Origin: a virus
IMG/VR virus record: IMGVR_UViG_3300010370_002417
Coordinates: 1 to 64,000 of that record
DNA length: 64,000 nucleotides
Reading direction: 5' to 3' (one strand)
In this document: piece by piece, positions 168 to 4,229 of the stretch
Layout of the letters: every line of letters starts with the position of its first letter
How positions within the stretch are numbered: the stretch's first letter is position 1
Made by a program: the position numbers and the translations under genes
Notes under the pieces: generated by a model
What the model was told of the DNA's origin: nothing
Databases searched by the model: none
What the model saw: the letters and a program-made list of their open reading frames with translations, nothing else

Positions 168-428
168 TTACCAAGCTCTACAGATTCTACGCTCGCGCAT
201 ACCATATGGCGTGCGATCCCATGTGCTATAGCAATGCTGGGCTGGACGACGATATCCATAAGGATACGGCGCGACGTAGTGACGCTGCGCAATGTAAGGG
301 CGCGGAACAGGCGCAACATAGACTGGCGATGCGACAGCCACGTCAATTCCAGGTCGTGGCGTATAGACTGTTGCGTTGCAGCCAGCAAGACCAACAGCCA
401 AACAAGAAGCGATTAGAACCTTTTTCAT
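168..428 (-). CDS. Pro/Tyr/Arg-rich small lipoprotein
   Basis: MKKVLIASCLAVGLAG-C lipobox; GGAG SD; ATGA overlap with upstream stop. Confidence 0.7.
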   Translation of the reverse strand: MKKVLIASCLAVGLAGCNATVYTPRPGIDVAVASPVYVAPVPRPYIAQRHYVAPYPYGYRRPAQHCYSTWDRTPYGMRERRICRAW

Positions 429-787
429 GCGATACTCCAAACATAGTCGTCGATTGTATAGACGGACTCCTGGCCGTCATATTCGTCGATGCGATATTTA
501 GTTCCAGCAGGCAACTCGTAAATGCGAAGATTAGCCGCAAAGCCATTGGCTGCATCACCCAGTTCTTCAACGGCTTGAACAAGCGCGCGATCCGTGCGCT
601 GACCGTCCAGATCGTATTGCGAATGCTGTTTGCCATCTTCGTCGAGAATCCAGCCGCTATCCCAAGATGATGTGCCGTCAGGTGCTAGATATTGCCAACC
701 CTTGATCTCGGCGATTCGCTTCATTGCAGCCGCAGAAAGACCAAAGCCGCCGTAGCAAGCATTATATACAATCTTAGTCACATTCAT
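425..787 (-). CDS. conserved phage hypothetical protein
   Basis: KIVYNACYGGFGLS...LVQAVEELG...IDEYDGQE is a pattern common in phage proteins; start placed downstream of tRNA-Arg (793, 787 or 781). Confidence 0.7.
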   Translation of the reverse strand: MNVTKIVYNACYGGFGLSAAAMKRIAEIKGWQYLAPDGTSSWDSGWILDEDGKQHSQYDLDGQRTDRALVQAVEELGDAANGFAANLRIYELPAGTKYRIDEYDGQESVYTIDDYVWSIA

Positions 788-800
788 CTCCATTGTCAAG

Positions 801-877
801 TGGCGATCGCGGAAGGACTCGAACCTTCGACCCACAGCTTAGAAGGCTGTTGCTCTATCCAACTGAGCTACGCGACC
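801..877 (-). tRNA. tRNA-Arg(UCU), CCA encoded
   Basis: Reverse complement GGTCGCG-TAGCTCAGTTGGATAGAGC-A-ACAGC-CTTCTAA-GCTGT-GGGTC-GAAGG-TTCGAGT-CCTTC-CGCGATC-G-CCA folds as a 77-nt cloverleaf. Confidence 0.97.
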
Positions 878-964
878 TTTTCGCTTATACTGTTTCCGCG
901 ATTGTTTCACGCGCACGCGATACTTGGGCGTGCGTAGATCTTTCGCGATAGGATTCTTACTCAT
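839..964 (-). CDS. small basic ArfA-like protein; C-terminus overlaps tRNA-Arg
   Basis: ATGA coupling to the upstream stop; MSKNPIAKDLRTPKYRVRVKQSRKQYKRKG resembles the ArfA core [30 protein letters not shown] (by eye). Confidence 0.6.
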   Translation of the reverse strand: MSKNPIAKDLRTPKYRVRVKQSRKQYKRKGRVAQLDRATAF

Positions 965-1617
965 GCGGACAATTCCTTCACAAGACGACCCATACGACGA
1001 CCGTGGGCAGGATACGCGACGACAGCCACTTCCTTGGACCAGCAGGCGCGACAATCGCCACATTTGCCAGAACGCTCGTATGCGTCGCAGACTTTGCTAG
1101 CCTTAGTTTCGCTATCCGCGAACGGGATAACAGTGGATCCGTGATCGGCGTCGAACTCGCCAGTCATGGAGTCAGCAGAATAACGAACCGCCACGTTGGG
1201 CAGAGTCTTCATACGCTCCAGGATCGCGCGGATACGCGGTACCTTGTAGGACTTGGTAGGAAGCCAATGTTTGACATGCGGCGTCTTCTGCATAACCAAA
1301 AAGATCTTGAACGCGAGCGCGGGATGATATACGTCGCCAGAATCAAACCAGCGGAAGAACTTCTGCCGTTTCAACTCTTTGACCATATCATCGACCCACT
1401 CGGCTCGCTTCCAGTCTTCGCGATTGTGCTCGCGGACTTTGATCGCGTCGGGCATCATATAGAAGCCTTCGTTCGCATAACAACCAGCGCAAACAGCAAC
1501 GGGCAACTTGGTAGCCTTGTCGATAGAACCAGGGCAGGTAGCACGAGCCTGGAGCGACCACGACTTAGCCGGCATCTTGGAAGCTTTGGACAACTTGATC
1601 ATAACGAAACCTTTCAT
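961..1617 (-). CDS. GP88-family Cys-rich, putative Fe-S (radical-SAM-like) protein
   Basis: CPGS...CAGCYA, RWFDSGD, HWLPT, C-terminal CxxCxxCW; alternative SD-led start at 1602. Confidence 0.7.
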   Translation of the reverse strand: MKGFVMIKLSKASKMPAKSWSLQARATCPGSIDKATKLPVAVCAGCYANEGFYMMPDAIKVREHNREDWKRAEWVDDMVKELKRQKFFRWFDSGDVYHPALAFKIFLVMQKTPHVKHWLPTKSYKVPRIRAILERMKTLPNVAVRYSADSMTGEFDADHGSTVIPFADSETKASKVCDAYERSGKCGDCRACWSKEVAVVAYPAHGRRMGRLVKELSA

Positions 1618-1626
1618 CTTGGCTTA

Positions 1627-1655
1627 ATGATACCACGGGATGACTGGATTGTCAA
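1627..1655 (-). promoter_or_regulatory. sigma70-type early promoter
   Basis: TTGACA-17-TATCAT. Confidence 0.8.
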
Positions 1656-3567: not shown

Positions 3568-3642
3568 TGGAGCGGCGAGCGGGAATCGAACCCGCGACCA
3601 ACAGTTTGGAAGACTGTGACTCTACCACTGAGTTACCGCCGC
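3568..3642 (-). tRNA. tRNA-Gly(UCC), CCA encoded
   Basis: Reverse complement GCGGCGG...ACAGT-CTTCCAA-ACTGT...GCGGG-TTCGATT-CCCGC-TCGCCGC-T-CCA, 75 nt. Confidence 0.97.
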
Positions 3643-3650
3643 AATTCTTA

Positions 3651-4229
3651 TTAGTTATTGTCAAGCCACTCCAAAATGTTCTCTGGAGACGTCTCGCCGT
3701 ACGGATCAGTATCGCAATTATCACTGAAGCCGGGCTCCTCGAACCACGCTTCAATCACGCCGTTATTGACGATCATAGCATAGCGCCAGGAACGATCGCC
3801 GAATCCCAGATTCTCCTTCGAAACAGACATACCGAGTTTGCTTGTAAACGTGCAGTTTCCGTCTGGAATCATCTTGACATTCATGACATTCTGAGATTTA
3901 GCCCAAGCATTCATCGTGAACGCATCATTCACTGAGATACAATAGATGTCGTCGATGCCGCGATCTTTGAACGCATTGTAGCAATTATCAAATCCTGGCA
4001 GCTGAAACGTTGAACAAGTCGGAGTAAACGCTCCAGGAAGCGAGAACACGATCACGCGCTTGCCACCAAAATAATCATAGCTGTTCACATCTTCCCAACG
4101 ATATGGGTTTGGTCCCTGGATAGAATCGTCGCGAACGCGAGTCTTGAATACTACCGCAGGAACGATAGAACCAACGCGATTGATACTAGCAGCTTGATGC
4201 TGTAGCTTCATCCATTCATCATATTCCAT
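3651..4229 (-). CDS. peroxiredoxin (Prx5 subfamily)
   Basis: FSLPGAFTPTCS active site, SVNDAF, IPDGN, RSWRYA. Confidence 0.93.
   Translation of the reverse strand: MEYDEWMKLQHQAASINRVGSIVPAVVFKTRVRDDSIQGPNPYRWEDVNSYDYFGGKRVIVFSLPGAFTPTCSTFQLPGFDNCYNAFKDRGIDDIYCISVNDAFTMNAWAKSQNVMNVKMIPDGNCTFTSKLGMSVSKENLGFGDRSWRYAMIVNNGVIEAWFEEPGFSDNCDTDPYGETSPENILEWLDNN

Follow-up and report, generated by a model that had tools for sequence, protein, structure and literature searches.

The locus at positions 801–964 of the viral DNA analysed here raises the question whether a phage can control a ribosome-rescue peptide through the maturation of a tRNA. The IMG/VR virus record measures 77 kb, and the window, i.e. 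the whole stretch that was analysed, covers its first 64 kb. The initial annotation had described a 41-codon ORF that is coupled to a GP88-like gene, resembles ArfA by eye, enters a tRNA-Arg at a codon boundary and finds its sole in-frame stop in the anticodon loop. The coupling and the position of the stop were confirmed: the minus-strand ORF 964..839 consists of 41 codons plus TAA, its ATG (964–962) shares an ATGA overlap with the TGA (963–961) of the GP88-like PF17338 gene, codon 30 begins at G877, which is tRNA +1, and the TAA (841–839) starts with the third anticodon base and runs over the two loop positions that follow it. The locus comprises the following features:

1627..1655, minus strand: sigma-70-like promoter (TTGACA, 17 nt, TATCAT, with TG); consensus scan 11/12, a pattern match alone
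961..1617, minus strand: GP88-like gene, 218 aa; PF17338 E 4e-29, phrog_1392 E 1.4e-23
974..978, minus strand: Shine-Dalgarno sequence AAGGA, 9 nt 5' of the peptide's ATG; sequence motif
878..964, minus strand: 29-codon ORF of the DUF7230/ArfA superfamily without its own stop, last codon Lys AAA; DUF7230 E 0.0069
877..878, minus strand: predicted site of RNase P cleavage, separating codon 29 (last base 878) from tRNA +1 (877), as expected from universal tRNA 5' maturation
801..877, minus strand: tRNA-Arg(UCU) with encoded CCA; ARAGORN (anticodon tct), Rfam 70.1 bits, E 2.4e-14
839..841, minus strand: incidental in-frame TAA in the anticodon loop, which terminates the 41-aa read-through form; ORF list
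425..781, minus strand: downstream gene, phrog_16527 (E 1.2e-27); probable GTG start at 781 behind GGAG, 20 nt past the tRNA

Between the ORF and the tRNA there is neither a stop nor space for a separate tRNA promoter, and about 20 nt separate the CCA from the next gene; the tRNA is therefore part of an mRNA. The promoter at 1627..1655, 5' of the GP88-like gene, is likely the start of a co-transcript of GP88-like gene, peptide and tRNA, which is probably shared by the phrog_16527 gene. The latter is located right after the tRNA in the related locus L012 and farther downstream in L005. A further promoter-like element (TTGACA-17-TAAGAT) at 771–799 on the minus strand lies directly 3' of the tRNA, where it coincides in part with the start region of the following gene (ATG 793/787, GTG 781 behind GGAG), and could be a match by chance. 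A tRNA-Gly(UCC) at 3568–3642 (minus strand) is preceded by a 192-aa gene (3651–4229, minus strand) that ends with TAATAA and by an 8-nt spacer, and abutment of gene and tRNA is therefore not universal in the window. A tmRNA gene was found neither in the window nor in the related loci retrieved.

Using three queries (the GP88-like protein, the junction DNA pattern and the peptide profile) we recovered the same codon/tRNA junction in 19 further IMG/VR contigs from different metagenomes, 20 with the window. In all 19 the ORF ends with ...Y-[KT]-R-K and is followed with zero spacer by +1 of tRNA-Arg(UCU). By sequence comparison the stop-less junction is thus conserved in the clade, which removes the one-off chance stop loss that the initial annotation had named as a refutation. 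The surroundings are more variable: the GP88-like gene precedes the pair directly, is separated from it by 1–3 intervening ORFs or is missing (L088), while the pair of peptide and tRNA is constant. In most relatives the N-terminus is longer by 11 residues, which gives a peptide of 40 aa; the ATGA overlap and the short form are confined to the window and L033.

An ORF of only 29 codons that scores below Pfam thresholds and is unannotated in some relatives (e.g. Ochrobactrum phage ORM_20) might be suspected to be a chance open frame 5' of a tRNA. The pattern of substitutions argues against this. For the 28 codons before the tRNA in ten distinct sequences we obtained a pS of 0.70 and a pN of 0.20, i.e. 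a pN/pS of 0.29 in frame as opposed to 2.8 and 1.5 in the two other frames, so that purifying selection is frame-specific. Third positions vary in 27 of the 28 codons; synonymous sites are saturated and the protein is conserved. The last four codons alternate across the clade between TAT and TAC, AAA and AAG, six different Arg codons and again AAA and AAG, and selection at the protein level therefore extends right up to the tRNA. An AAGGA(G/A) motif 5' of the peptide's ATG is kept in all ten loci examined. Finally, a search of 1.84 billion proteins with the clade profile (A2) returned 527 related clusters (defined at 50% identity) at E≤1e-3. Together with the in-frame pN/pS of 0.29 these clusters effectively refute the chance-ORF reading, to which we leave next to no probability.

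How closely the peptide is related to ArfA depends on the breadth of the profile used. The window peptide itself matches DUF7230 (PF23876) below the gathering score of 27, with 16.9 bits and E 0.0069, and the family profile finds it in its own genome with E 7.4e-19. Neither the 41-aa nor the 29-aa form matches Pfam ArfA (PF03889, gathering score 25.5 bits) at E≤10, an NCBIfam search gave no matches, and single-sequence phmmer against the PDB returned weak basic-protein noise alone (mL64, eL31; E≥0.086). The homologue of Acinetobacter phage Acj61 scores 47.3 bits with DUF7230 and E 3e-17 with phrog_2701. Family members share the consensus RNPIAKDLRTPKYRxRVVxSKKxYxRK, which is followed by variable basic tails. 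In P0154, P0179, P0185, P0192, P0199, P0246 and P0259 a KGKGS/GRGA-type insert precedes the Tyr, and KGKGS-type members are reached by the clade profile at about 1e-8. Among 143 representatives, 58 match DUF7230 and 8 match Pfam ArfA. When a profile of all 143 (A3) was run against the whole PDB only ArfA chains were returned, representing 6 distinct sequences (5MDV, 5MDW, 5U4I, 5H5U, 7OJ0, 5MGP) with E-values of 5.3e-4 to 3e-3; the alignment covers ArfA residues 8–51 with a 3-residue gap at GKG. Comparison of A3 with ArfA by hhalign, for which the ArfA set was enterobacterial only, gave Prob 72% and P 3.3e-5 over 39 columns, and the narrow clade profile alone was weak (P 0.002–0.01). In the sister phages L026 and L022, whose GP88-like proteins are 70–72% identical, the small gene after the GP88-like gene is positive for PF03889 (30.4 and 29.7 bits, cut-off 25.5), and their ArfA carries KGKGSY or GRGSY. 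The L031 peptide matches both families, and intermediates with KGKGS/GRGS inserts form a continuum between them. From the profile links, the PDB and hhalign matches and the ArfA genes of the sister phages it follows that DUF7230 and ArfA are, at the level of sequence, one superfamily, of which the window peptide represents the DUF7230 branch. The resemblance first judged by eye therefore stands as homology of the superfamily but does not extend to a PF03889 match of the window peptide itself.

The best-conserved part of the alignment coincides with the segments of ArfA that contact RF2 and are placed at the decoding centre, namely helix 15–24, F25 and strand Q27–E30 (PMC8012679). Window residues P5–K14, Y15 and V17–K20 correspond to ArfA 15–24, F25 and 27–30; hardly any variation is seen in the [FY], R and V columns, and both share the basic channel segment as well. 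ArfA A18 aligns with a Lys, the family's invariant Ala being located one position earlier. As had been noticed before, the window peptide lacks KGKGS: the motif falls into the 3-residue gap at the GKG position, is absent in most DUF7230 members as well and is present in L026, P0154 and P0179. The KH motif (K44 H45 equivalent), with which ArfA docks in the mRNA entry channel, is absent in the stop-less product, which ends at the equivalent of K42. In 126 relatives KH occurs within 6 residues after YxR in 30 cases (24%), and the tail after YxRK has a minimum of 3 and a median of 13 residues; none ends at YxRK. On the basis of the aligned sequences we lean slightly towards an ArfA-type, RF2-dependent activity of the peptide.

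Some family members depart from the common layout. Two marine-looking DUF7230/ArfA-like subfamilies (L154, L159, L174, L178–L181 and L142, L161, L162, L167, L173, L176, L182, L183) carry the conserved C-terminal modules ...TWTPTKGLLQMLQR and ...AGNKxLEEFKEIIRxW, which suggest functions added to the ArfA-like core. An unannotated member in phage ORM_20 (L001:1501–1698; OX359470.1 13846–13649) shares 55% identity with the window peptide, stays open over 65 codons and reads about 100 nt into a convergent Rz-like spanin gene, whose stop sits exactly where the conserved part of the peptide ends. A terminator was looked for at this locus and none was found.

The tRNA-Arg is under structural selection according to its covariation: helix pairs are kept 21/21 in ten sequences, and 9 pairs show compensatory double changes. 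Position -1 is always occupied by a purine from the Lys codon and the discriminator position by G or A, so that the acceptor stem would not be extended. The stop inside the tRNA is not conserved. The window's TAA is absent or shifted in L013/L014/L015/L083/L104, L017 and P0134, and a one-base difference in the D-loop or a change in the anticodon loop sets the read-through tail to 7 (L017) and 12 or 26 residues (L013 group, P0134). The tail is therefore dictated by the tRNA and not by the protein. We also considered that the ORF might sense its own tRNA via AGA/AGG codons; this was rejected, as the window ORF has none and such codons are not consistently present in the ORFs of the clade.

We then asked how far the arrangement extends within the family. 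Among 60 distinct family peptides on viral contigs, 46 have an ordinary stop and no tRNA nearby, and the stop-less design is therefore clade-specific. The 14 peptides abutting a tRNA all belong to one clade and adjoin one tRNA, so that the arrangement probably goes back to one ancestral event. The expectation that homologues also abut tRNAs or lack stops is thus borne out by the 19 further junctions but not by the majority of the family. In this clade the gene has retained neither its 3' tail nor its stop, and +1 of tRNA-Arg(UCU) follows directly on its last Lys codon. Taken together, we are dealing in all probability with a genuine phage gene of the ArfA superfamily that is fused, without a stop and in a conserved manner, to a functional tRNA.

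In the stop-terminated phage relatives we searched for an arfA-like hairpin or terminator before the stop and found none: z-scores ranged from +2.4 to -2.1, compared with -4.0 for E. coli arfA. A general non-stop design across the family was rejected on these values. In Acj61 a UUCG hairpin spans the last codons and the stop comes after the stem, and the L023 and L031 ORFs continue across a conserved short hairpin; both cases are unconvincing as arfA-like designs. This short hairpin (GGTGCGAC...GTCGCACC) is located just past the stop of the DUF7230 gene in four loci among L018, L021, L023, L025, L031 and L036. In L023 and L031 it lies inside the ORF, and the tail of the peptide is the translated hairpin.

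Two loci show variant junctions. In L012 (3435–4007) a 190-aa endonuclease-type ORF, inserted precisely at the junction, separates the YKR of the peptide from the tRNA; it matches phrog_3322 (E 2.6e-22) as well as phrog_1035 (endonuclease VII) and phrog_3118 (HNH) and has no Pfam match. The stop of the insert itself is a TAG at tRNA positions 8–10. By the insertion the peptide has obtained its own stop and an 11-residue tail, a variant that has persisted (L012 and cluster P0133). In L005 (3151–3345) the ArfA-like gene is deleted; the remainder ...KLYKK has become joined to an upstream ORF of 64 aa, which enters a tRNA-Arg with two compensatory changes in its acceptor stem.

RNase P carries out the universal 5' maturation of used tRNAs. 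If the tRNA-Arg is used, each mature tRNA therefore leaves behind an upstream mRNA ending on the last sense codon, and given such use the formation of stop-less mRNAs is very probable. As in the design of arfA and brfA, there is no stop between the ATG at 964 and tRNA +1 at 877, and the RNase P site is obligatory. In the mechanism we propose, tRNA maturation would cut exactly after the last sense codon and leave the mRNA of GP88-like gene and peptide without a stop; ribosomes finishing the peptide would stall with an empty A site. The preferred overhang past the P site is ≤3 nt for ArfA and ≤9 nt for tmRNA, and the cut would leave 0 nt past the last codon, which lies within the preferred substrate range of both tmRNA-SmpB and ArfA. 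Trans-translation would normally resolve the stalled ribosomes and tag the peptide for degradation, so free peptide would build up chiefly under a shortage of tmRNA. Bacterial arfA, which loses its stop by an RNase III cut or a terminator, and brfA, which loses it by a terminator, behave in this way. If a transcript is translated ahead of processing, the read-through form would result, with its end at the incidental stop in the tRNA. By homology, the free peptide most likely binds to the decoding centre and the unoccupied mRNA channel and brings in RF2. That the cut lies exactly in frame, which the initial annotation had emphasized, has a prior of 1 in 3 and no mechanistic weight, since a ribosome stalls at the 3' end of an RNA in any frame. 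By analogy with the bacterial genes, the stop-less mRNAs may be the main template and the arrangement a sensor of tmRNA load, a step for which we see slightly less than even odds. For the combined reading, an ArfA-like gene expressed from an RNase P-generated non-stop mRNA under control of tmRNA, we estimate a probability of roughly 0.5. Weighing against it are the weak direct match of clade and ArfA profiles, the lack of KGKGS, the missing KH motif and tail of the stop-less product, the inactivity of shortened E. coli ArfA, the ordinary stops of most relatives, which show no arfA-like hairpin, and the loss of the peptide in L005.

The main rival, which we consider possible but rather unlikely, is tight packing without a switch. 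The working product would then be the read-through peptide (41 aa in the window), made from transcripts that RNase P has yet to cut and terminated by any stop that the tRNA happens to contain; stop-less mRNAs would be a tolerated by-product without a sensing role. The peptide could act as an ArfA-like factor even so, with constitutive production as in most of its phage relatives. Several observations fit this explanation. A length of 41 aa is usual for the family, the DUF7230 model has 42 positions, and a tail is found in all relatives (median 13, never 0). The first residues encoded by the tRNA (G-R) mimic the "RKGR" continuation in P0161, P0177, P0210, P0224 and P0248. Most family members have plain stops, the L012/P0133 variant persists with its own stop, and the ATGA coupling in the window favours ribosomes close behind the polymerase. 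Against it, the read-through tails differ in length and sequence (7, 12 or 26 aa) and follow changes of the tRNA, with no selection on the tail visible at the protein level. In addition, every mature tRNA implies one upstream stop-less mRNA, so that such templates must form if the tRNA is used.

A habit of packing genes into tRNAs also bears on this rival. We examined ORFs of at least 80 codons, replacing a crude count of open frames that had been swamped by spurious frames across tRNA arrays. In the related phages at least 8 clearly real and unrelated genes (108–404 codons) stop within the first 7–14 nt of a tRNA, mostly with the TAG formed by U8-A9-G10, and in six further genes the stop touches tRNA +1 exactly. 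The tRNAs that contain such stops are the following, with coordinates in the tRNA's own orientation:

L089: tRNA-His 5968
L093: tRNA-Leu 4702 and 5243, tRNA-His 5917
L094: tRNA-His 6748, tRNA-Ser 8622
L095: tRNA-Asn 1844
L097: tRNA-Gly 1829
L104: tRNA-Ser 9036

Overlap of genes and tRNAs is a habit of these genomes, which lowers the case for a purpose-built switch. At the same time tRNA maturation would render the mRNAs of the genes with a stop inside a tRNA stop-less, and this suggests why the phages might need an ArfA-type factor for untagged release from their own RNase P-truncated messages. One may go further and suppose that the factor handles a self-made problem: maturation of the tRNA array would yield complete but stop-less messages, release of the ArfA/RF2 type would free the proteins untagged, which tmRNA would mark for destruction, and the factor's own stop-less mRNA would tune it to the tmRNA load. 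We regard this extension as doubtful. It is improbable, in our view, that the peptide is no rescue factor at all and binds ribosomes or RNA in another role. It would then, for instance, block the empty mRNA channel of host ribosomes, disturb host ArfA or tmRNA-SmpB, or serve as a leader, the translation of which governs how the following tRNA array folds and matures. The DUF7230 branch is uncharacterised, KGKGS is missing and the KH motif often so, A18 is replaced by the Lys next to the shifted Ala, some subfamilies carry conserved extra C-terminal modules, and in relatives the gene heads a large tRNA array, all of which would agree with such a role. However, the parts that DUF7230 and PF03889 have kept in common are the RF2-contacting core, a short helix followed by [FY]-R-x-R-V, and the basic channel segment, the intermediates with KGKGS/GRGS inserts form a continuum, and AGA/AGG codons that would make the ORF a sensor of its own tRNA are not consistently found.

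The neighboring GP88-like protein has 590 relatives in IMG/VR, and its gene repeatedly adjoins ArfA/DUF7230 genes on either side. An AF2 model of this protein (PF17338/DUF7227; window 961–1617, minus strand; L018–L036; L087:2465–3064) has a pLDDT of 91.4. Foldseek of the model against the PDB gave nothing at E≤1e-3. In a wide VIA-align search radical-SAM enzymes (PFL-AE, viperin, SuiB, LIAS, LipA, SPL, QueE, EpeE) account for 9 of the best 10 matches, which are weak (Z 5.0–5.8, rmsd 4–6 Å, 129–166 aligned residues). Invariant Cys residues at 28, 43 and 46 (CX14CX2C spacing) and at 177, 186, 189 and 192 suggest Fe-S clusters.

If the main reading is true, RNase P-generated non-stop mRNAs would represent a third independent route to the "non-stop mRNA" switch after arfA (RNase III or terminator) and brfA (terminator), in this case driven by tRNA maturation and encoded by a virus. 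It would bring together three subjects usually studied apart, namely ribosome rescue, the tRNA arrays of phages and the processing of mRNA-tRNA co-transcripts by RNase P. The tie to ArfA is the first functional handle on DUF7230, a very large uncharacterised family of phage mini-proteins (527 clusters). Peptides of 29–40 aa can be synthesized, and an RF2-dependent release assay would define a minimal ArfA. In a literature search we found no account of RNase P-generated non-stop mRNAs of the arfA type or of DUF7230. Phage ArfA genes as such are already annotated (Pelagibacter phage HTVC027P gp30), and the non-stop design of ArfA-type genes is already known from arfA and brfA.

Comparison with known systems places the window peptide between several of them. 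ArfA (YhdL, PF03889) of E. coli and other beta/gamma-proteobacteria (5MDV, 5MGP, 5U4I, 5H5U, 7OJ0) is likewise a small basic peptide, and residues 14–42 share with the phage peptide the core N-x-I ... L ... P-x-[FY]-R-x-R-V ... K-K ... Y-x-R-K. Its gene design is also alike in that at the window locus, too, the mature mRNA would have no stop. Unlike ArfA, the window peptide has no KGKGS, its stop-less product has neither KH motif nor tail, and only 3 residues precede the conserved Asn compared with 13 in ArfA. Truncation to 40 residues inactivates E. coli ArfA (PMC8012679). In arfA an RNase III cut or a terminator takes away the stop, whereas in the phage, which itself encodes the peptide, tRNA 5' processing would do so. 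By profile the window peptide belongs to the same family as the uncharacterised phage mini-proteins of DUF7230 (PF23876) and PHROGs 2701, 20887 and 6310, and the core motif RNPIAKDLRTPKYRxRVV-SKK-Y-RK is also present in its clade. Typical DUF7230 members, however, have 40–60 aa, their own stop, a basic tail of 3 to >20 residues and no adjoining tRNA, while the window clade has neither tail nor stop. HTVC027P gp30, which is annotated as ArfA and transcribed during infection (PMC12753301), lies about 0.8 kb from the GP88-like gene gp33, and proximity to a GP88-like gene is also seen at the window locus. It differs from the window peptide by a GRGS insert, a long N-terminal extension, an ordinary stop and the lack of a tRNA.

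The mRNAs of both arfA and brfA lose their stop, which places the expression of the two genes under control of trans-translation (PMC8012679). Like the design proposed for the phage, BrfA of Bacillus subtilis is an RF2-dependent rescue factor with a stop-less mRNA under control of trans-translation, and beyond the KH motif it is reported to have no outstanding sequence similarity to ArfA (PMC8012679). The brfA stop is lost through a terminator inside the ORF, in contrast to the tRNA processing that would act in the phage. The arrangement further resembles mitochondrial tRNA punctuation, where cuts by RNase P and RNase Z at tRNAs set mRNA 3' ends that lack a complete stop; non-stop mRNAs in mitochondria are treated in PMC9674279. 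In mitochondria polyadenylation completes the stop, whereas in bacteria, which are without such repair, the mRNA remains stop-less.
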